From Patescibacteria group bacterium (GTDB lineage: Bacteria > Patescibacteriota > UBA1384 > CAJBMM01): a DNA stretch of 64,000 nucleotides. The position numbers were made by a program, and so were the translations under genes. The notes beneath the pieces were generated by a model that made no database searches, was not told where the DNA came from, and saw only the letters and a list, made by a program, of their open reading frames with translations. Below are positions 14,593 through 63,221 of this stretch, piece after piece. How positions within the stretch are numbered: position 1 is the first letter of the stretch; each line of letters begins with the position of its first letter. Location: the NCBI GenBank assembly GCA_041660565.1, contig JBAZWC010000001.1, positions 366,481-430,480 on the forward strand, in the 5' to 3' direction.

Positions 14593-17220
14593 CGTAACTT
14601 TAAACCTAATTTGCTCTTTCACCAAATCAACCTTAATTGTTCCACCAGTATTTATTTCTCCGCGGACAATCATCTGTGAGATTGGATTAAGTAGCTGGTT
14701 CTCAATTACCCTTTTTAGCGGCCGAGCACCGTAACGACTATCATAACCGATTTTGGCTAAGTGATCTTTGACCTGTTTGGACACCACTAAATTAATATGC
14801 TGTTTATTAAGACGTATTAGTACTAAATTGAGCTGAATATCGACAATTTTGACCAGTTGCTCGGGTTTTAACGGATTAAAGATTATTACGTCATCTAATC
14901 GGTTCAAAAATTCAGGCTTAAAATGTTCTTTAAGTACCTCATCAATTTTTTCTTCCAGCTTCACCTCTTCTTCGGCCTCTGCGCTATCACCAGACACAAA
15001 CCCGAGTCGCTTAATGCCACTTTCAGAAGCGTATTGTTGCATAATGTCCGATCCCAAGTTACTGGTTAAGATAATTACGCAATTCTTAAAATCTACATTA
15101 CGACCCTTGGCGTCAGTCAATCTGCCGTCATCCAAAATCTGCAACAAGATACTGAATACATCGGGATGCGCTTTTTCGATTTCATCAAGCAGCACCACAC
15201 TATACGGCCGGCGACGGATCATCTCGGTTAACTGCCCACCTTCTTCGTACCCCACATACCCTGGTGGCGAACCAACCATACGTGAAACAGCGTGTTTCTC
15301 CATATATTCGGACATATCAAGGCGCACCAATGCCGATTCGTCATTAAACAGTGCTTCGGCCAGTGCCTTAACCAGCTCGGTTTTCCCCACGCCGGTTGGC
15401 CCCAAAAAGATGAATGATGCAATCGGGCGCTTCTCTTCACTTAACCCAGCTCGCGAGCGTCTGATAGCATTTGCCACTGTTGTGATGGCCTCTTCTTGAC
15501 CTACCACCCTGTGCGCTAAAATTGACTCCAAATCGTTAAGTTTAGCAAGCTCTCCGGACAACATTTTGGTCACCGGCACGCCGGTCCACCGCGCCACTAC
15601 CGCTGCAATATCGTCCTCGGTTACCTTTTCTTTGAGCATTTTGGCACTTTTTGGTAGCTGTTCTAGCCGAACGTTCTCTTTTTGAATTTCTTTTTCCAAT
15701 TTGGGAATTTCGCCATAACGCAGACGCGCCACTTCCTCCAAATTGGCTTCGCGCTCGGCAGTGTCGGCGTTCGATTTTAGCACTTCAAGCATTTTGGATT
15801 TTTGTCGCACACTGGTGATAATAGACTTTTCTAACTGCCACTCGGCTTCCAAGGTTGATGACTTTTCTTTTAGCTCCGACAGCTCTTTTTGCAACTTTTC
15901 TAAACGATCTTTATTTGAAGCGTCATCATCATTTCGAATCGCTTCACGCTCAATTTCCAGTTGCATCACTTTGCGTTTAAGATGATCTAGCTCGGCCGGC
16001 ATCGAATCTACCTCCATGCGCAATGCCGATGTGGCCTCGTCAATCAAATCGATCGCTTTGTCTGGCAAAAATCGATCGGTAATGTAGCGGGCAGACAGTT
16101 CGACTGCTGCCACCAAGGCTGCGTCAGTAATATGCGTGCCATGATGCACTTCGTACTTTTCTTTCACACCTCGCATAATAGCGATGGCGTCTTCGATACT
16201 TGGCTCAGACACGTAAACCGGTTGAAATCGTCTGGCCAATGCTTGATCTTTTTCGATGTATTGTTGATATTCTTTCAGCGTGGTTGCCCCGATGGCGTGC
16301 AAAGTGCCTCGTGCTAGCGCCGGTTTAAGCAAATTGCTAGCGTCCATTGATCCTTCGGCCGCGCCGGCGCCAACCAAAGTGTGCAGCTCATCGATAAATA
16401 GAATAAATTTACCCTGCACCTCATCAATCGCTTTTAACACCGCTTTCAAACGTTCTTCAAAATCACCTCGGTGCTTAGCCCCGGCTAACATTGAGCCTAA
16501 ATCAAGCGACATTACTTGCCTGTCTTTAAGCGTTTCGGGCACATCACCGGAGACAATGCGGGTTGCCAACCCTTCCGCAATCGCTGTTTTACCCACACCC
16601 GGCTCACCAATTAAAACCGGATTATTTTTGGTCCGACGCGTGAGCACCTGCATCACCCGACGCACCTCTTCATCCCGGCCAATAACCGGATCAAGTTTGT
16701 TGTTTCGCGCCATATCACATAGGTTGATGGCGTATTTCTCTAAGGCTTGATATTTTTGCTCCGGGTCGGTTGATGTAACTCGCTCGGTGCCCCGAATAGT
16801 CGAGAGCGTTTGCAACATTAATTCGCGATTAATACCAAGTTTAGATAGAATTTGTTTTGCTTCAGACGATACCTCTAACATTGCCAATAGCAGGTGTTCA
16901 ATTGAAACATATTCATCGGTTAAGGTACGTGCCTCTTTTTCGGCTTGATTAAGCACGCGCACCAACGTTGGCGAGATCATAATTGAATTGGCCGCGCTTA
17001 GTTTAGGTAAATGCTCAAGCTGAGTTAATAAATCATCCCGAATCACGTCAAAATCTTTATTTACCGATTGAATTAGAGGGCGCATTAGATCTTCGCCAAC
17101 TTCTAAACTGGCGTAAAACAAATGCAGTGGTTCAATTTGGCTATGATGCAATTCACGCGCCAACTCTTCGGCGCGGGTTAAAACCGCCGCAGTTTTACTG
17201 GTAAATTTATTCGGATCCAT
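14590..17220 (-). CDS. clpB: ATP-dependent chaperone ClpB (AAA+ disaggregase, two nucleotide-binding domains)
   Basis: Clp N domain, Walker A motifs GEPGVGKT and GPTGVGKT, coiled-coil middle domain, 876 aa. Confidence 0.95.
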
Positions 17221-17286
17221 ATTTTCCTCCCCATCCTATCGTAGCATAATCACAATGGCGTCCGTAAAGTAGGCGATCGACAAAAC

Positions 17287-17652
17287 TTACTTACGTATTC
17301 TTACTTCAAGCAAATTATGGTCTAAATTGATATTAATATCATCTACGGTGATGCCTGGAACCTCTGCCTCAATAATTACTTCTCTTTTAGTTTGATAAAC
17401 ATCAACAGCAATGTTTTTAGGCAGCTCGGGGATATCTTCTTCAATGATAAAGAGCTGTTCAATTGGCGCCTCAAAGAATCTTGAGATGGCGATGGCCACC
17501 GGTACCGATGGTACACATCGCCCGGATTCAAGCGAGATAATCGATTGTCGAGATATCCCAACCGCCTCAGCCAACGCCTCTTGCGTTAGCTCATGCAATT
17601 TGCGCATATCTCTAATGCGATTTTTAATTATCGTAATTTCTTCTTGGCTCAT
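17287..17652 (-). CDS. HTH-XRE DNA-binding domain fused to a truncated alpha-crystallin (Hsp20) domain; putative heat-shock regulator
   Basis: N-terminal LTQEALAEAVGISRQSIISLESG (XRE HTH). C-terminal VDVYQTKREVIIEAEVPGITVDDININLDHNLLEVRIRK matches the first beta-strands of the Hsp20 ACD. Immediately upstream of clpB. Confidence 0.75.
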   Translation of the reverse strand: MSQEEITIIKNRIRDMRKLHELTQEALAEAVGISRQSIISLESGRCVPSVPVAIAISRFFEAPIEQLFIIEEDIPELPKNIAVDVYQTKREVIIEAEVPGITVDDININLDHNLLEVRIRK

Positions 17653-17670
17653 TTTATTTCTTTTAGTAAC

Positions 17671-17790
17671 ATTGTAAAGTATGCTTTACATTTTTGTCAA
17701 TACGTTTTGCTTTATGTTTCTTGTTCGAGCGAATGCGAGAACTACCCAATTTTCCCTATACATCACGGAGTTCTCGTTGCACTCGAACAA
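17671..17790 (-). promoter_or_regulatory. Promoter (TTGACA-18-TACAAT) plus a 23-bp-arm imperfect palindrome (operator or terminator) upstream of the HTH-ACD/clpB unit
   Basis: Minus-strand -35 at 17695-17700 and -10 at 17671-17676. Palindrome arms cttgttcgagcgaatgcgagaac (17720-17742) and gagttctcgttgcactcgaacaa (17768-17790). Confidence 0.5.
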
Positions 17791-17806
17791 AAACGAGATT
17801 CTAATT

Positions 17807-18553
17807 CTATTCCCTATCTTCCATTTTCCATTCTCTGCCAATAGGACAAATATCCACAAACTCGCACCACTTGCACGTCATCCCCGGGCTGGCCGATAGT
17901 TGTTTGTCAGCTTGAATACGAGAAACAGTATTTACGATTTCTGATTCCATCGCCGTAATATCAGCCTGATCCGGCGAGAAAGCAAAGCGATCATTTTGTT
18001 CTAAATACCAGTAGCTTACTTCTGCCGGAATTTGATCCATCGCCCGCGATACCAAAACCGCGTAAGTTAGAAGCTGCGATTTATCCACATATTCCGGATT
18101 GTAGCGACTGGTTTTATAGTCAATCAGATGCAGCCCTTTATTCTCGTCCAGATCAATTCGATCGATTCGGCCGCTCAATAAAATGTCATCGGTAATTTCG
18201 GATTGAATGTGATGCTCAAAAAAAGTTGGGGTGTTTTTGGATTGATCTTTTATCGCCACCTTAACCATTTCAATCGCACGCTGACCAAAGTTGGCTTCTT
18301 CATCACGAGATTTAAATCCGTTACGATTATTACGCCAATCTTGACGCAAAATGTCAACAGATTTTTTTATCGATATTTTTTGATAATTCGGATCAGAAAA
18401 GATAGTTTTCAATGCCCCATGCACATGCTGACCCATCGTAAATTCGGGTTTGGCTTTGGCAAATTTGTCACGCAGATTTTCCACATAGATAAACTTATAC
18501 CGCCGAGGGCACATGATGTAGTTTTTTAATTTATCATAGCTAGCTCGAAACAT
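17807..18553 (-). CDS. PD-(D/E)XK nuclease, Cas4-like / RecB-family exonuclease with a 4-Cys cluster (stand-alone, no CRISPR)
   Basis: IDRIDLDENKGLHLIDYKTSR (D…D/ExK motif). One N-terminal Cys (YIMCPRRY) plus C-terminal CKWCEFVDIC, the Cas4-type Fe-S arrangement. 11 nt downstream of xseB. Confidence 0.7.
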   Translation of the reverse strand: MFRASYDKLKNYIMCPRRYKFIYVENLRDKFAKAKPEFTMGQHVHGALKTIFSDPNYQKISIKKSVDILRQDWRNNRNGFKSRDEEANFGQRAIEMVKVAIKDQSKNTPTFFEHHIQSEITDDILLSGRIDRIDLDENKGLHLIDYKTSRYNPEYVDKSQLLTYAVLVSRAMDQIPAEVSYWYLEQNDRFAFSPDQADITAMESEIVNTVSRIQADKQLSASPGMTCKWCEFVDICPIGREWKMEDRE

Positions 18554-18564
18554 AGCACGCGCGC

Positions 18565-18801
18565 TTATTCTTCCCGATCTGAAATGTTTACATCCAGCAC
18601 CTTAAGCTCGTTTTCTACCTTCGATAGCTGTTTACGCAAACTTTTAAGCAACTCCATACCGGTCTTAAATTGACCGATCGATTTTTCCAAATCCATATTC
18701 CCCTGATCCAATTTATCTACAATTTCTTGCAGTTGTGCATATTCTTCCTCAAAACTTTTCATAATATCCCTTTCTTTACTCATGTGATTACTTTTTGTCA
18801 T
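18565..18801 (-). CDS. xseB: Exodeoxyribonuclease VII small subunit
   Basis: 78-aa helical protein, EEEYAQLQEIVDKLDQGNMDLEKSIGQFKTGMELLKSLRKQL is the XseB pattern. Confidence 0.8.
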   Translation of the reverse strand: MTKSNHMSKERDIMKSFEEEYAQLQEIVDKLDQGNMDLEKSIGQFKTGMELLKSLRKQLSKVENELKVLDVNISDREE

Positions 18802-18980
18802 TTCGACCCTGCGAGAATGTCGATTCGAGCTTGTTGGCCTCCGCTCGTAAAGCTACGGCTTGGAGAGAGAAATCTGAGAAAGAATCCCTTCAAGTCTTTT
18901 CAGGAGATTTCTCCCTCCGGGCTTACGCCCTAAGAGGGCAGGAAGCCACCCTCGACTTGAATGTCGAGGAGTCGAAATGA
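18796..18980. mobile_element. MITE-like structured element (about 185 nt) with 13-bp terminal inverted repeats TTGTCATTTCGAC/GTCGAAATGACAA, inserted between xseA and xseB
   Basis: Nested inverted repeats. Partial copies at 63021-63140 (left end) and 59205-59285 (right end). The ccctccgggcgta.gccctacgggctggagcc module also occurs at 12395-12430. Confidence 0.6.
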
Positions 18981-18992
18981 CAATTAATGGCA

Positions 18993-20174
18993 CTACTCAT
19001 TACTCACCACTTTGCTCTCCACCCTTCCATCCACAAACACCGATGTTATTTGATCTCCGGTTTTGACACTTTTGGCGGATGTTAGCACCTTGTCCCCAAT
19101 TTTGGTGATTGAATATCCTCGCTTCAAAACCTGCAGCGGATCCAAGCCTGACAATCGCACCGACATCAACCCAATTTTTTGATTCGCAGTCTGAATTTGC
19201 TGTTTGACTGCGTTCGACAATCGATGTTCTAAATCGTCCACCCGTCTTAACGGCATCACCAAACTACGATGCAAGCGATGTAATTGTTGGTCTAGCAGGC
19301 GTCCCCAATTTACTAAATTACGCTTGACTGCCGATTGCAAGTTGTTTTCAATCGAGTTAAGTTTTAGACCAAATTCATCGTAATCAATTACCGCAATCTC
19401 GGCTGCATTGGTAGGAGTAGCGGCTCGACGGTCTGCGACCATGTCGATTAAGGTAACATCTGGCTCGTGACCAACTCCGGTAATAATGGGAATTTTGCTG
19501 GCAAAAACCGCGCGCGCCACCGGCTCCGAGTTAAACGCCTGCAGATCTTCAAGCGACCCGCCTCCACGCGCCACAATAATTACGTCTACCGGATAGTTGG
19601 CGTTAAAATATTGCACCGCGTTTACAATGTCGGTAACCGCATTTTGACCTTGTACCGCCACCGGTAATAAGTTAATTTTTAGCCCACCTGCCCGATTGCT
19701 TAAAATTCGCATAATGTCTTGTAGAGCATCGCCATCTTTAGAGGTAATTAGTCCTAATTTGATCGGGAATAACGGTAGTGGTTGTTTCCATTTATCTAAA
19801 AACAGACCCTCTTTGTCTAACTTTTGTTTTAGCTGTTCAAACGCTTTTAGTAAATCACCTTCTCCCACTAATTCCAAGCTTTTGACGGTAAGTGAAAATC
19901 GGCCGCTTTTGGTCACAATTTTGGGTTGAGCTACTATTTTTACCTTCATCCCGTCTTCCAGAGCAAACGGCAGTGCAAACAACATCATAAAACAGCTGAG
20001 CATAGACTGATCATCTTTTATGTTAAAATACACGAATTTACTTTGGCTGATATTGAATCCGGACACCTCCCCTACCACAGTCAAAGTAAGCGGGTTTAAG
20101 ATATCGTTAAGCAGATCCGCGGCTTCGGTAACCGAGAAAGTTTGTTCTTGAATTATTTCGGGATAATTTGTCAT
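18993..20174 (-). CDS. xseA: Exodeoxyribonuclease VII large subunit
   Basis: OB-fold N-terminus. VARGGGSLEDLQAFNSEPVARAVFASKIPIITGVGHEPDVTLIDMVADRRAATPTNAAE is the conserved XseA catalytic core. Confidence 0.9.
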   Translation of the reverse strand: MTNYPEIIQEQTFSVTEAADLLNDILNPLTLTVVGEVSGFNISQSKFVYFNIKDDQSMLSCFMMLFALPFALEDGMKVKIVAQPKIVTKSGRFSLTVKSLELVGEGDLLKAFEQLKQKLDKEGLFLDKWKQPLPLFPIKLGLITSKDGDALQDIMRILSNRAGGLKINLLPVAVQGQNAVTDIVNAVQYFNANYPVDVIIVARGGGSLEDLQAFNSEPVARAVFASKIPIITGVGHEPDVTLIDMVADRRAATPTNAAEIAVIDYDEFGLKLNSIENNLQSAVKRNLVNWGRLLDQQLHRLHRSLVMPLRRVDDLEHRLSNAVKQQIQTANQKIGLMSVRLSGLDPLQVLKRGYSITKIGDKVLTSAKSVKTGDQITSVFVDGRVESKVVSNE

Positions 20175-20225
20175 CGCAAAGGTTAGTTTAACAGCTTTGA
20201 TTAATACTACGCAAGGATTGGATCA

Positions 20226-20307
20226 GTTGGGGAAATTAGGGAAGTTCGGGTTGTTGGGAGAGCCAATGGCCTACCAACCGCCCTAATACCCCCTAATCCC
20301 CCTAACC
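20226..20307. repeat. TTAGGG/CCCTAA-type imperfect palindrome (same family as 13898 and 14516)
   Basis: gttggggaaattagggaagttcgggttgttggg-agagccaatggcc-taccaaccgccctaataccccctaatccccctaacc. Confidence 0.6.
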
Positions 20308-20399
20308 GACTCTTCAGCATTTTCTAAGGCTTTCCCCATACTGTTAACTTGTAACCAAAACCGTCGGTAATAGTGTAGAATAGAAATGAGGGGAAAATA

Positions 20400-20969
20400 A
20401 TGGAATTAGATAAACTGGATGACAAAGCATTGGTTGCCCTAGCCCAAGAACAACATCAAGGTGCGCAACAGTTGCTTTATCGCCGATACTTTCAGCCGAT
20501 ATACGGCTATCTTGCTTCGCAACTTAGAAACACTCATAACGCAGAAGACTTGGCTCAGGAAACCTTTGTTCGTGCTTTTCAGGGATTGCATAACTATCGC
20601 GGTGAGGCAAGCTTCAAAAACTGGCTTTATAAGATTGCCAAAAATCAGCTTGCCGATTATTATCGTGATCAGCATTCCGGCGTAGTCGAGCTAGATGACG
20701 CCGCACCGCCAAGACAATTACAAAAGAATATGCTCGACGAAACCGACACCGAAGCAGCTGACAAACAAACAATGCGCCGCTTAAACAAAATGTTTTTCTA
20801 CCTACCGGCAAAATACAAAAAGGTGCTGGTGTTAAGATTTCTTAAGGGATTCTCTTTAAAAGAAACGGCTTCTGAAATGAATCTAAGCTTAGCCAATACT
20901 AAAGTAATTCAACATCGCGCCATGAAACTAGCCCGAACTAAGACGGAATTTGTCTATGAAGAAAATTAA
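20400..20969 (+). CDS. ECF-type RNA polymerase sigma-70 family factor
   Basis: Region 2 (DLAQETFVRAFQGLHNYRGEASFKNWLYKIAKNQ) and region 4 (VLVLRFLKGFSLKETASEMNLSLANTKVIQHRAMKLAR). Confidence 0.85.
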   Translation: MELDKLDDKALVALAQEQHQGAQQLLYRRYFQPIYGYLASQLRNTHNAEDLAQETFVRAFQGLHNYRGEASFKNWLYKIAKNQLADYYRDQHSGVVELDDAAPPRQLQKNMLDETDTEAADKQTMRRLNKMFFYLPAKYKKVLVLRFLKGFSLKETASEMNLSLANTKVIQHRAMKLARTKTEFVYEEN

Positions 20970-21207
20970 GTCCAAATTTACTTGCAATTCAAAATCCGTG
21001 CGCAAGATAGAGCGGTCTGTCTTAAAATTGGCCGGACACCCATCGGTTCGAAACGCCGGATTAGATTTTTATATCACCGAGCGTCAAATATTACTTCTAA
21101 TTATCTTATCCACGCTGATAATTCTATCGGTTAGCTTTGGTATTCTAACGCCATCCAGAGCGGCTGCCCCAGAATTTAGCGGAACCAATGATATCGTAAC
21201 ACGATAA
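20950..21207 (+). CDS. Possible membrane-anchored anti-sigma factor
   Basis: Overlaps the 3' end of the sigma gene by 20 nt. Single TM helix. No recognisable motif, so weak. Confidence 0.35.
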   Translation: MSMKKIKSKFTCNSKSVRKIERSVLKLAGHPSVRNAGLDFYITERQILLLIILSTLIILSVSFGILTPSRAAAPEFSGTNDIVTR

Positions 21208-24254: not shown

Positions 24255-24345
24255 ACCTTGTCATTCCGGGCTCGATTGTTCCGCTAGGGACTAACGATTC
24301 CGACCGCAAGGTAGCGAGGAGTATCCGGAATCTATGTAAAAGAAT
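24255..24345. repeat. Palindromic GTCATTCCGG…TCCGGAATCTATG repeat element (near-identical copy at 48655-48745)
   Basis: About 88% identity over about 90 nt with 48655-48745. Related units at 48600-48650, 49672-49745, 53399-53495 and 55748-55940. Confidence 0.65.
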
Positions 24346-27122: not shown

Positions 27123-27514
27123 GGGGCTGTATTAGATTCGACAGGCCGTCCACATTCACCCTTGCATAACGAGACGCTCACTCACTCGTAAAACGCGAGC
27201 AAAAAACAATAACTGCCAACAGTTTTGTTAGCAAAGTCAAAGGTGCTTTTGCATCTATGTCCTTTGCGCCAGCTTTCGCCTAAAACCGAAAGCCGTTTGC
27301 TTTCTTCTTCGTTGATGAAGAAAGGCCAAGCGTCATATTATCAACGCGCCAAAGTGTAGATTCATTCTGTAAACTTTGAAAGATACTGAATGTGCTGGGA
27401 TAACTAACTTGGAGTGCTCATTATGTTAGACCAAAAGAAATTTGAACACCTAATTATGTAGAAAAGATGAATGTACCGGTTTGGACAGGAGTGCAACTCT
27501 CCTCAGCTCCACCA
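27123..27514 (+). ncRNA. ssrA: tmRNA (SsrA), one-piece. tRNA-like ends GGGGCUG…UCCACCA. Predicted tag ORF ANSFVSKVKGAFASMSFAPAFA*
   Basis: 5' ggggctgtattagattcgacagg and 3' ggacaggagtgcaactctcctcagctccacca closely parallel E. coli ssrA. Resume codon GCC follows aataact, and the frame ends gct ttc gcc taa. Confidence 0.85.
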
Positions 27515-27597
27515 CGCTAAGCGTGGTAATCGGGACGCTCAGCGTCCCACCAAATGTATGGAATTATTCCATTTTTAATGTTACGACGCTAAGCGTC
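27510..27597. repeat. Three short hairpins of the NNCGC-TNA-GCGNN family directly after the tmRNA 3' end
   Basis: ccacgcTAAgcgtgg, gggacgcTCAgcgtccc and gacgcTAAgcgtc. The same hairpin family occurs at 55882-55917 and 59017-59052. Confidence 0.55.
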
Positions 27598-27604
27598 GCA
27601 AACT

Positions 27605-27952
27605 TTGAAAAACGTTTGGATTAGTACTCTTAGCAACAAAAATGAACCAGAAATGGTTCTTTTTTGTTATAATAATATTATGTATTATGTTTATATTTTA
27701 TTAAGTGATAAAGATGACATGCTGTATTTTGGTAGTACACCAAATTTACAGGAAAGAATCGCAAAACATGACGCTGGATTTGTTAAAGCAACGCAAAACA
27801 GGCGACCACTTAAATTATTATACTACGAGGCATATTCATCAAAAATTGATGCGCTAAAAAGAGAGAAGTATTTTAAGGGAGGGAAAGGCCATAACGACCT
27901 AAAAGTGCAATTTGAGAATACCTTGCTAAAAAATAATTATATATTTCTCTAA
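27605..27952 (+). CDS. GIY-YIG nuclease-domain protein (UPF0213-like small endonuclease)
   Basis: YYVYILLSDKDDMLYFGSTPNLQERIAKHDAG…REKYFKGGKG. The track start is TTG. A more likely start is ATG at 27653 or 27680 (possibly leaderless after a TATAAT at 27667). Confidence 0.75.
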   Translation: MKNVWISTLSNKNEPEMVLFCYNNIMYYVYILLSDKDDMLYFGSTPNLQERIAKHDAGFVKATQNRRPLKLLYYEAYSSKIDALKREKYFKGGKGHNDLKVQFENTLLKNNYIFL

Positions 27953-48654: not shown

Positions 48655-48745
48655 GTGTCATTCCGGGCTTGATTGTTCTGCTAAGAACTAACGACTCCAG
48701 CCGCAAGGCAGTGAGGAGTATCCGGAATCTATGTAAAAGATTATT
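48655..48745. repeat. GTCATTCCGG…TCCGGAATCTATG palindromic element (copy of 24255-24345)
   Basis: About 88% identity to 24255-24345. Adjacent partial unit at 48600-48650 shares ccgccagctggcggatg with 43946-43966. Confidence 0.65.
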
Positions 48746-49671: not shown

Positions 49672-49745
49672 TTTGTCATTCCCGTGAAGACGGGAATCCA
49701 GACTATGAAAATATTTTCCACATAGATTCCGGATCAAGTCCGGAA
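49672..49745. repeat. Palindromic GTCATTCC…GGAATGAC element containing an inverted TCCGGAATCTATG module
   Basis: gtcattcccgtgaagacgggaatc … catagattccggatcaagtccggaatgaca. Confidence 0.55.
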
Positions 49746-49761
49746 TGACATGGCCGAGTGA

Positions 49762-49833: not shown

Positions 49834-50202
49834 ATGTTGTATGTCTGGATTGGAGACATCGCTCCAGACGTTGATAGCGAATACGTCCGCCGACTGGAGC
49901 TGGAAGTGGAGACGACAATCGGTCATGCCGTTCACCCCAGACCAGTCAAGTGTTGGGCAGCAAGGGCATTTCGCTGCTCCGATGAGCCACAGCAGACACC
50001 TTCGGTCATGACGATCCATGTCATCTCGGCAGGACCGATCCCGGCAACAGACGTGGATCGACTCCAGCAGCTACTTCATGAGATCGCGCTCAGGTTCATC
50101 ACGGATTGCAATTCAGGACAACATGGGTTAGCAGTTATGGTAGTAGGCTACTCCCGCGACCCGCTGTCCTACCAGTACCTAACGACTGACGACACGCCCT
50201 GA
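49834..50202 (+). CDS. Hypothetical high-GC protein (cassette)
   Basis: 122 aa, strong Shine-Dalgarno, followed by a terminator. No recognisable motif. Confidence 0.45.
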   Translation: MLYVWIGDIAPDVDSEYVRRLELEVETTIGHAVHPRPVKCWAARAFRCSDEPQQTPSVMTIHVISAGPIPATDVDRLQQLLHEIALRFITDCNSGQHGLAVMVVGYSRDPLSYQYLTTDDTP

Positions 50203-53398: not shown

Positions 53399-53495
53399 TC
53401 TAAAAATGTCATTCCGGATTTAATCCGGAATCTATATAAAAAATCTTTTATAGTCTGGATCCCGGGTCGAGCCCGGGATGACAGCTCGGGATACT
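53399..53495. repeat. Compound palindromic repeat (gtcattccgga-ttta-atccggaatc and atcccgggtcgagcccgggat-gacagctcgggata) related to 55748-55940
   Basis: Shared …tctggatcc…gggatgacagctcg.gata… module with 55850-55945. Confidence 0.55.
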
Positions 53496-55747: not shown

Positions 55748-55940
55748 AATTTAAATTGTCATTCCCGCCCCGAGGCAATGCTCGGGGTAAACTTCGGCGG
55801 GAATCTGGTGCCAACCATCCCGAACTTGCTTCGGGGCAGCCTAAAACTAAGATTCTTTTCTGGATCCCCGAATAGAATGTCGGGACGCTAAGCGTTCCTT
55901 TGCCCCGCTCAGCGGGGCGGGGATGACAGCTCGTGATATT
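55748..55940. repeat. Compound palindromic repeat block (gtcattcccgcc…ggcgggaatc, gggacgcTAAgcgttcc, ccccgcTCAgcgggg, gggatgacagctcg)
   Basis: Multiple nested hairpins shared with 53399-53495, 27510-27597 and 59017-59052. Confidence 0.55.
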
Positions 55941-58943: not shown

Positions 58944-59138
58944 GATCTTACTATAAAATTTTTAAGCTCAAATGTCTAATATTCCTCCTCATCCGCCCTC
59001 CGGGCACCCCGCTAAGCGGGGTTGAGGGACGCTTAGCGTCCCACCTTCTCCTCTAGAGGAGAAGGGAGCTTCCAATTAAGCCAATCAATCCAATCAGACC
59101 AATTGTGATCAGAGAAAAAATCCTTTCCATCATTAAAA

Positions 59139-59204: not shown

Positions 59205-59285
59205 TACATTTCTCCCTCCGGGCGTAGCCTACGGGCGGAGCCAACAGCTCGACAAGGCTCGTAGGGTCGAAATGACAGCTCAGAA
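59205..59285. repeat. Right-end fragment of the TTGTCATTTCGAC MITE-like element (…ccctccgggcgtagcctacgggcggagcc…gggtcgaaatgacag)
   Basis: Shares the TIR and the internal ccctccgggcgta…ctacggg module with 18796-18980 and 63021-63140. Confidence 0.5.
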
Positions 59286-63020: not shown

Positions 63021-63140
63021 CTGTCATTTCGACTCTGCGAGAATGTCGATTCGAGCGTGTTGGCCTCCGGCTCGTAGACCCTCCGGGCGTAAGTCCTACG
63101 GGCTGGAGCCTACGGCTCGGAGAGAGAAATCTTAAAAAAG
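63021..63140. repeat. Left-end partial copy of the TTGTCATTTCGAC MITE-like element
   Basis: ctgtcatttcgactctgcgagaatgtcgattcgagcgtgttggcctccggctcgta… is about 85% identical to 18796-18850. Confidence 0.55.
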
Positions 63141-63221
63141 AATCCCATCCCGTAATTAAAAATTTCAAATTTCAAATTATCGCAATTGTACTGTCAACCC
63201 AGAATGTGATTAAATAGAAGT

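Follow-up and report, generated by a model that had tools for sequence, protein, structure and literature searches.

Why does a gene for a Cas4-like nuclease lie just behind the two subunit genes of exonuclease VII (ExoVII) in a Patescibacteria group bacterium, and what is the hairpin-rich insert that holds those two subunit genes, xseA and xseB, apart? We examined both questions in 64,000 nucleotides of contig JBAZWC010000001.1 (assembly GCA_041660565.1, positions 366,481 to 430,480; this whole stretch is hereafter the window, and its own numbering is used throughout), where xseA, xseB and the gene for a 248-aa nuclease are three co-directional minus-strand genes. The reading that we consider probable is a three-gene DNA-processing operon that carries, as a passenger, an inverted dimer of the repetitive extragenic palindromic (REP) type, related to the SRM hairpins of the Ssn proteins. 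The locus comprises the following features.

18993-20174, minus strand: xseA, exonuclease VII large subunit, 393 aa, intact
18796-18982, no strand assigned: inverted dimer of two TGTC-tagged hairpin units, expanded SRM / CGTC-REP type
18796-18874, plus strand: left unit, TGTCATTTCGAC ... GGAGAGAGAAATC, with nested extra hairpins, 79 nt
18906-18982, minus strand: right unit, minus-strand reading TGTCATTTCGAC TCCTCGAC..GTCGAGG ... GGAGGGAGAAATC, 77 nt
18565-18762, minus strand: xseB, small subunit of exonuclease VII, 65 aa when counted from the conserved start
17807-18553, minus strand: solo Cas4-family / RecB-type PD-(D/E)XK nuclease with a predicted four-Cys Fe-S site, 248 aa
17671-17700, minus strand: promoter-like site TTGACA-18-TACAAT, an 11/12 consensus match only, preceding a helix-turn-helix (HTH) gene

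Both ExoVII subunits score above their equivalog cut-offs and are encoded on the same strand, 230 nt apart. With TIGR00237, whose cut-off is 180, XseA reaches 374 bits and covers positions 19-388 of the 389 in the model, and it matches PF02601 (E 1e-80) and PF13742, while XseB reaches 60.2 bits against TIGR01280 (cut-off 35) and also matches PF02609. An earlier reading of this DNA from its letters alone (the sequence-only reading) had named and placed the three genes, and the profile scores uphold its calls and coordinates, with all three genes on the minus strand; the 11-nt gap that it gave between the xseB stop, which ends at 18565, and the nuclease ATG at 18553 is likewise confirmed. The longest xseB open reading frame (ORF) runs from 18801 to 18565 and has its ATG inside an inverted end of the insert. 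In an alignment with five orthologues the first 13 codons of this frame are an extension into the element, and since the orthologues (65-71 aa) align from M14, we take xseB to be 18762 to 18565, which sets the length of the spacer. Truncation of xseA by the insert was considered and rejected: the XseA C-terminus aligns with those of five orthologues, and the protein is shorter because of a gap within the coiled coil and a reduced N-terminus in that alignment. The downstream limit of the xseA-xseB-nuclease unit is likely the promoter-like site at 17700 to 17671, judged by its match to consensus. The locus resembles other ExoVII operons in that both subunits pass the curated cut-offs and in that xseA and xseB are adjacent or overlapping in relatives; it differs in the repeat element that occupies its 230-nt spacer and in the third, nuclease gene of the unit.

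The nuclease fits PF12705 (PDDEXK_1) over the whole protein with 116.9 bits, far better than it fits the Cas4 profiles. Against PF01930 (Cas_Cas4) it scores 36.2 bits, above the threshold of 22.7, with partial model coverage (52-158 of 160), and against the cas4 equivalog TIGR00372 it scores 47.6 bits, under the cut-off of 65. The RecB-type motifs D ... (D/E)xK ... QxxxY are present: D131, D145-Y146-K147 and Y164 do not vary among 27 homologues, nor does Q160 among the 10 closest. C15, C227, C230 and C236 are invariant in the same 27 homologues (1+3, CxxCx5C), so that the Cas4-type arrangement of cysteines proposed from the letters is borne out by alignment, with every ligand in register. By these motifs the protein is a RecB-type PD-(D/E)XK core with the 1+3 Cys arrangement found in Cas4, AddB and AdnA; its Cys set is predicted to hold an Fe-S cluster, and 5'->3' exonuclease activity on single-stranded DNA is predicted along with the cluster. 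The term stand-alone Cas4, used in the sequence-only reading, stands as far as it means a solo member of the Cas4 family; as a claim of curated cas4 identity it is to be used with reserve, given the score of 47.6 against 65 bits and best solved relatives that include ACE1 and the AdnA nuclease domain beside SSO0001.

A full HMMER scan recovered 3,328 cluster representatives homologous to the nuclease at E<=1e-3, many of them stand-alone proteins of ~250 aa, and other members of the family are C-terminal domains of 1,000-aa helicase-nuclease-like proteins. The closest solved relatives by sequence are ACE1 (9iab/9iac), the nuclease domain of AdnA (6ppu) and the Cas4 protein SSO0001 (4ic1), in alignments limited to ~120 C-terminal residues of the nuclease. 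No CRISPR array was found in the 64-kb window and no cas gene among the nuclease's neighbours, as the sequence-only reading had maintained, and this context places the protein in the solo Cas4 category. Judged by domain content and surroundings, it is a Solo-Cas4-type protein and a member of a large known class, which a passage of PMC12538437 that cites Hudaiberdiev 2017 presents as established and expected to act in repair or recombination. With Solo-Cas4, ACE1, AddB and AdnA it shares the RecB-type core, one N-terminal and three C-terminal cysteines, and a location outside CRISPR-cas loci. Unlike the Cas4 families, it falls below the cas4 equivalog cut-off and aligns with the solved structures over ~120 residues, and its N-terminal half is longer than that of Cas4 (248 aa in total, compared with ~200). 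Unlike the solo Cas4/ACE1 group, it has xseAB as its conserved neighbour, not an Argonaute or a helicase.

Two observations on the protein family stand apart from this argument. The public JGI call of the nuclease is 225 aa long and begins at residue 24, although homologues align from residue 1, and it therefore omits Cys15, the first Fe-S ligand. Some relatives (P0009, P0010, P0014, P0019 and P0028) carry the domain three to seven times in tandem, an architecture unusual for a Cas4/RecB-type domain; P0009, of 1297 aa, has seven matched stretches.

The nuclease is found with xseAB beyond this genome. The four closest orthologue loci (44-50% identity) come from groundwater contigs and a metagenome-assembled genome labelled Candidatus Saccharibacteria, and their gene order is sigma factor, xseA, xseB, none or one gene, nuclease, SNase (staphylococcal nuclease), HTH/Hsp20, ClpB; in the window, the neighbours of the nuclease within 5 kb are ClpB, the HTH gene, xseAB, a sigma factor and TetR. 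XseA and XseB profiles were then run over 80 nuclease loci from species-representative genomes, with a radius of 5 kb, and xseAB lay within that distance solely in Patescibacteria. On another Saccharibacteria chromosome the order is nuclease, xseA (with an 8-nt overlap), xseB and an endonuclease III-like gene, and in several Kerfeldbacteria and unclassified Patescibacteria it is xseA, xseB, one to four genes and the nuclease, with a LexA-like gene adjoining; the intervening gene in Kerfeldbacteria, between xseB and the nuclease, is LCP-like. Three gene orders thus keep the nuclease with xseAB, in at least two Patescibacteria classes, and gaps of 10-11 nt in two lineages suggest units of co-translation. 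Because the linkage recurs in other genomes and withstands rearrangement, it favours a shared role, and functional coupling of the nuclease with ExoVII is likely on this comparison of neighbourhoods. The sequence-only reading had named two grounds for giving up its view, Cys ligands that fail to align and a linkage confined to this genome, and neither was observed.

The alternative that survives best, which we rate as unlikely while still a serious competitor, is that the adjacency of xseB and the nuclease is inherited synteny without shared function, the nuclease working in an unrelated pathway and sharing only a transcript. The whole 10-kb neighbourhood, from the sigma factor to ClpB, is syntenic in the closest relatives, so that part of the linkage is simply inherited and adjacency is uninformative there; extra genes part xseB from the nuclease in two of those relatives and in the Kerfeldbacteria loci; and the linkage was absent, within 5 kb, in ~50 orthologue loci from Chloroflexota and other groups. 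Synteny of this kind does not readily account for partners that stay together in three gene orders and at least two classes, for the order in which the nuclease overlaps xseA by 8 nt beside an endonuclease III-like gene, or for the 10-11-nt gaps in two lineages.

A role in defence has less in its favour. If the nuclease served defence and not repair, in the manner of Cas4-like accessories (ACE1, Argonaute-associated or Druantia type), its best PADLOC matches, which are to Cas4 models (E 1.7e-15) with weaker ones to DruK and Aga_Cas4-like_Nuc, would be expected, as would ACE1 as its best solved relative, an Argonaute-associated enzyme of the Cas4 family (PMC12094033). Against this stand the lack of a CRISPR array in the 64 kb and of a cas, Argonaute or Druantia partner among the neighbours, the score below the curated cas4 cut-off, and a stable chromosomal position beside housekeeping genes in several lineages; we regard the defence explanation as improbable.

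Two differences between the window and its relatives lie just downstream of the nuclease. The HTH_3 gene that follows it (17287-17652, minus strand) encodes 121 aa and ends in the middle of an Hsp20 (alpha-crystallin) domain, and its orthologues are HTH_3+HSP20 fusions of 211-232 aa. The SNase gene found 3' of the nuclease in 4/4 relatives is represented here by just a 154-nt spacer (17653-17806). The truncation and the loss suggest, from this comparison, two deletions in this lineage.

The insert between xseA and xseB is a palindrome bounded by perfect 13-nt inverted ends, TTGTCATTTCGAC, at 18795-18807 and 18971-18983; taken to 20 nt, the inverted ends are 85% complementary. A 206-nt stretch spanning it folds at -84.2 kcal/mol, compared with -57.8 +/- 4.6 in shuffled sequences (z = -5.8 for the mRNA strand, -5.2 for its complement; 0 of 200 shuffles equally stable). 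The 13-bp terminal inverted repeats (TIRs) and nested stems described in the sequence-only reading are real, but the length is 187-189 nt and not the 185 nt given there. Each unit has a basal stem of only 5 bp (ATTTC/GAAAT), an internal loop and one or two nested hairpins, and in both units tag, basal stem and following C read TGTC-ATTTC...GAAAT-C, so that the copy is a homodimer with a perfect 13-bp outer stem. By this arrangement of tags and stems, what had been read as TIRs are the tags, facing outward, of two REP-type hairpin units in inverted order. The left unit is ~93% identical over 58 nt to a solo unit at 63022, and a model built from 60 related units matches 18942-18982 in the right unit (E 9e-4).

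At 5/5 orthologous junctions of xseA and xseB the insert was absent, the genes there being 0, 20 and 58 nt apart (adjacent in L021 and L037), and this copy would therefore have arrived in this lineage. An independent short-read assembly (Logan SRR18595301, L001) agrees with the window throughout 16600-18862 (100% identity) and ends exactly in the middle of the palindrome; its identity up to that point means that the insert is present in that assembly too. As a separate observation, the Kerfeldbacteria locus L024 has a 338-aa ORF (1039-2055) between xseA and xseB, ATP-grasp-like by eye and labelled without a profile search, and two more ORFs of similar look, likewise labelled by eye, 3' of xseB; the junction is thus open to insertions in other Patescibacteria too.

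The insert belongs to a family dispersed through the window. The repeat unit, which is half of the palindrome, consists of TGTCAT, a 5-bp stem (ATYTC...GARAT) around a variable hairpin, and then C(T); full elements of 68-190 nt are two inverted units with their TGTCAT tags outward, and solo units are common. A detector requiring tag, 5-bp stem and C found 12 units in the window, compared with 0-3 in shuffled windows, and a 13th (solo, at 59208-59277) came from a pattern and BLAST search, giving 13 units at 9 sites. That search had turned up partial copies of the insert at 63021-63150 and 59208-59278. The inspected units all fold as expected. Besides the copy between xseA and xseB, the sites are as follows.

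24259-24332, plus strand: solo 74-nt unit, TGTCATTCCGG...CCGGAATC, with 65/74 positions identical to the unit at 48656
48656-48729, plus strand: solo 74-nt unit found by the detector
49674-49750, no strand assigned: canonical 77-nt dimer whose left unit, TGTCATTCCCGTGAAGACGGGAATCCAG, matches the published SRM pattern
50019-50085, plus strand: solo 67-nt unit, TGTCATCTCGG...GAGATC, overlapping a 122-aa ORF of uncertain reality
53407-53483, no strand assigned: canonical 77-nt dimer whose right unit, TGTCATCCCGGGCTCGACCCGGGATCCAG, matches the SRM pattern
55757-55928, no strand assigned: 172-nt dimer between two minus-strand genes
59208-59277, minus strand: solo unit of the TGTCATTTCGAC subtype, from the pattern and BLAST search
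63022-63131, plus strand: solo unit, 110 nt, TGTCATTTCGAC subtype, most similar to the left unit between xseA and xseB

Seven of the nine sites lie between co-directional genes, and the solo units are found in both orientations with respect to transcription. Since roughly every sixth intergenic spacer of the window is occupied, the presence of a copy between xseA and xseB calls for no particular explanation.

That frequency bears on the idea that the ExoVII operon has in the insert a cis-regulatory RNA of its own, selected for this place and fixing the ratio of XseA to XseB, perhaps as an attenuator, stabiliser or processing site. The predicted structure on the mRNA strand is very stable, ExoVII needs far more XseB than XseA (XseA4:XseB24; PMC10835039), and REP-type elements act on mRNA 3' ends (PMC3733652). 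A dedicated regulator would, on the other hand, hardly be missing from all five orthologous junctions examined or belong to a dispersed family with nine sites in 64 kb; it has no Rfam match (Rfam covariance models gave only chance-level matches, E > 0.6, over 17000-21000), and both strands fold equally well, as expected of a DNA palindrome. We give this explanation little credence.

The family extends well beyond the window. A scan of public metagenome contigs for the end motif returned at least 120 loci; among the matches listed, at least 265 units lie in 784 kb of metagenome loci, and at least six sites are on a 1.04-Mb contig that also bears an orthologue of the nuclease. In 60 distinct units, 91.9% of cells are paired, compared with 38-62% in slid controls. 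Pair 7-44 is UA in 54 units and CG in six, with none unpaired, and pair 16-34 occurs as four Watson-Crick types (UA21/CG19/AU7/GC2). Six pairs changed on both sides, in 58 cells compared with 10.7 in shuffles, and none of 500 shuffles reached the covariation score. The hairpin is thus kept by compensatory change, and the columns of the TGTC tag, the AT start and the C after the palindrome are invariant in these units. Rfam returned nothing on canonical copies in 11 loci. A U-G at pair 13-37 favours the TGTCAT strand as the RNA strand, but 19 of 60 cells are unpaired there.

The covariation also speaks to how two units fold together. In most full elements (L088-L207, among the matches listed) one unit has ATTTC/GAAAT and the other ATCTC/GAGAT, so that the long outer palindrome is always mismatched. 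The T/C to A/G covariation at pair 7-44 is within each unit and favours two side-by-side hairpins. A four-way-junction fold for full elements, with the outer ends paired and the inner GGAGAAATCT/AGATCTCTCC paired, is disfavoured by this within-unit covariation; in the xseA/xseB copy both units are of the same type, and side-by-side hairpins and a four-way junction are both possible there.

Small GIY-YIG proteins named Ssn are flanked by NTS/dRS3 sequences in Neisseria and by SRM in general, and SsnA binds its hairpin solely as single-stranded DNA and cuts a few nucleotides upstream (Chenal et al. 2025, PMC11893778). The published SRM pattern, HGTCWYN(0-2)YYVSBRHN(0-5)WNVSBRGN(0-2)RNCYNB (PMC11893778), is matched by two units in the window (49674-49701, plus strand, and 53455-53483, minus strand), compared with 0.17 expected in simulated sequence, and the unit TGTCATTCCCGTGAAGACGGGAATCCAG is nearly identical to the Neisseria NTS CGTCATTCCCGCGMAVGCGGGAATCYRG. 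The same association of hairpin and gene holds among the relatives of the element. All eight GIY-YIG ORFs (PF01541, 90-99 aa) in the repeat-selected loci are bracketed exactly by a plus and a minus unit, in elements of ~390-420 nt and, among the matches listed, in either orientation; one such ORF, g2, has 44% identity with the SsnA homologue of Neisseria gonorrhoeae (E 1.5e-25). Since these loci had been chosen by their repeats, the test was redone on homologues chosen by protein alone (from Berkelbacteria, Scalindua, Anaerolineaceae, Sulfotelmatobacter and two others): a tagged hairpin stands just upstream in 6/6, and an inverted unit at or just past the 3' end in 5/6. PLSDB holds the GIY-YIG family in Rhizobium, Sinorhizobium, Sphingobium, Novosphingobium, Azospirillum and Neisseria, and in all six cases opened hairpins tagged with CGTC, TGTC or CCTC stand on either side, four of these cases having been recognised by eye and not by the detector.

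A second published family is also close. CGTC-tagged REPs are defined by a tag CGTC, TGTC or CCTC, an AT-starting stem of 8-9 bp, a loop of 4-5 nt and a tail CCA; they are mostly inverted dimers, occur mainly in Alphaproteobacteria, and had no dedicated enzyme found for them (Di Nocera 2013, PMC3733652). We dropped the pairing of GIY-YIG gene and hairpin as a new candidate for this missing enzyme, as it has already been published as the Ssn family. The small copies in the window fit the CGTC-REP stem, loop and tail (ATTCCCG-TGAAGA-CGGGAAT-CCA), and the 'heterodimers' of Di Nocera 2013 match the unequal units of most full elements. In the xseA/xseB copy, the tag, AT start and dimer fit, but the stem is of 5 bp, the interior branched and the tail CT; units here are longer than CGTC-REPs, and branched. 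With the SRM/Ssn systems the repeats share the (C/T)GTC 5' tag, the AT-starting palindrome, the C that follows, hairpins of 20-50 nt in many copies, and, in related loci, flanking of Ssn-type genes, whereas the xseA/xseB copy has a 5-bp basal stem, nested hairpins and 77-79 nt per unit, and the host is a member of the Patescibacteria. Likeness to REPIN/RAYT systems (PMC3116915) lies in two inverted units forming one long hairpin, in their non-autonomous nature and in the single nuclease gene that they flank; the tag is TGTC and not GTAG, and the partner is a GIY-YIG protein (PF01541), not an IS200-like tyrosine (HUH) transposase. The units between xseA and xseB have the (C/T)GTC tag, the AT-starting palindrome and the C directly after it, and because the copy keeps these features but fails the published pattern, it is filed as an expanded variant, not as a canonical SRM. 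On these motifs, the element is best placed in the known family of the CGTC/TGTC-tagged REP superfamily and Ssn-related motifs.

The sequence-only reading had called the insert MITE-like (MITEs are miniature transposable elements with inverted repeats), which is apt for something small, ORF-less, repeated and palindromic but names the wrong kind, as its units are REP-type and no target-site duplication accompanies it. That it is a classical MITE, an insertion-sequence deletion derivative mobilised in trans by a DDE-type transposase through its 13-bp TIRs, is very improbable: perfect 13-bp inverted ends, a length below 200 nt, the lack of an ORF and several copies in the window are all as such an element would have them, but target-site duplications were looked for at six copies and found at none, half-units often stand alone, something that a MITE defined by its TIRs would not lead one to expect, the 'TIR' consists of the tag and basal stem of a covarying hairpin unit, the only ORFs of full-length relatives among the matches listed are 90-100-aa GIY-YIG genes in either orientation, no transposase-bearing relative occurs among the 120 loci listed, and the family is published as REP/SRM.

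Several further observations on the repeats and their GIY-YIG partners were made along the way. The window's GIY-YIG ORF (27680-27952, plus strand; PF01541 E 6e-16) shares 30% identity with the SsnA homologue of Neisseria gonorrhoeae. Ahead of it stand three short hairpins (27514-27600) with the core ACGCTNAGCGT, which recurs inside the repeat at 55885 and at 59029; ORF and hairpins may be a second nuclease/hairpin pair. On the Azospirillum lipoferum 4B plasmid AZO_p3 (255506-255799, L222) an Ssn-type gene lies between sufB and sufC with a REP dimer on each side, and this cassette is a further instance of the Ssn family lodged in a housekeeping operon. Tandem arrays of a 5' arm (TGTCATYTCGAC plus 5-17 nt), in two to four copies, precede a complete unit in L103 (~1040-1115), L132 (~2577), L141 (~793), L184 (~2295), L199 (~895) and L225 (3' of the GIY-YIG gene); they have the look of partial duplication that recurred, or of insertions stacked on the tag. 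Of the Ssn-type GIY-YIG proteins in the protein collection, many come from contigs of less than 2 kb, and TGTC-tagged repeats appear to break metagenome assemblies.

Returning to the operon with its passenger repeat, we propose that xseA, xseB and the nuclease gene would form one transcript. By analogy with the nuclease domains of Cas4, AddB and AdnA, the nuclease would trim DNA ends or single strands, and it would act in the pathway of ExoVII, a single-strand exonuclease, in the processing of ends or flaps during recombination, repair or DNA uptake and not in CRISPR adaptation. The 187-nt insert would be a passenger, acquired in this lineage and read through by transcription of the operon into an RNA hairpin of great stability, which at most would modulate mRNA stability or the ratio of xseA to xseB expression. 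No terminator-like site was found on the minus strand between 17200 and 20500, and the sequence after the hairpin is A-rich, not U-rich; with no terminator signature and an intact xseB, it is plausible that the insert leaves the operon unbroken.

Several points weigh against this proposal. Co-transcription across a hairpin of -84 kcal/mol is assumed, and the same hairpin might just as well serve as a partial terminator or as a site for RNase III. The evidence for coupling ExoVII with the nuclease is gene neighbourhood within one phylum, in a 10-kb region whose synteny in the closest relatives makes the linkage partly inherited, and in two relatives xseB and the nuclease are separated (L002, L004: an AHSA1-like gene; an opposite-strand ORF). 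As for the repeat, both units of the xseA/xseB copy fail the published SRM pattern, the sole GIY-YIG ORF of the window (27680-27952) has other hairpins upstream and no flanking TGTCAT units, and no Ssn gene flanked by TGTCAT units was found in the 64-kb window.

A bolder version, which we hold only tentatively and think rather doubtful, makes the solo Cas4-family Fe-S nuclease a dedicated partner of ExoVII, the two forming a minimal, helicase-free module for DNA ends and single-stranded DNA in the repair-reduced Patescibacteria. Such a module may serve recombination, the uptake of foreign DNA or the removal of protein-DNA adducts. More speculatively, it would also handle the breaks that Ssn proteins make in single-stranded DNA at hairpin repeats, one of which lies inside the operon itself.

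Nothing known is overturned by these results: ExoVII operons, solo Cas4-family nucleases and REP/SRM dimers are all known kinds. For annotation, they show that the public call of the nuclease omits its first Cys ligand, that the longest xseB ORF takes its start codon from a repeat, and that small hypothetical ORFs are easily called across TGTC-tagged repeats. Modestly new is the abundance in a Saccharibacteria genome of enlarged SRM-type repeats, with branched units of up to 110 nt that the published pattern misses, in a family of Ssn-related, CGTC-tagged hairpins so far characterised mainly in Neisseria and Alphaproteobacteria. Modestly new as well is the xseAB-nuclease neighbourhood that recurs in ultrasmall Patescibacteria, which offers a testable lead on DNA-end processing in reduced genomes.

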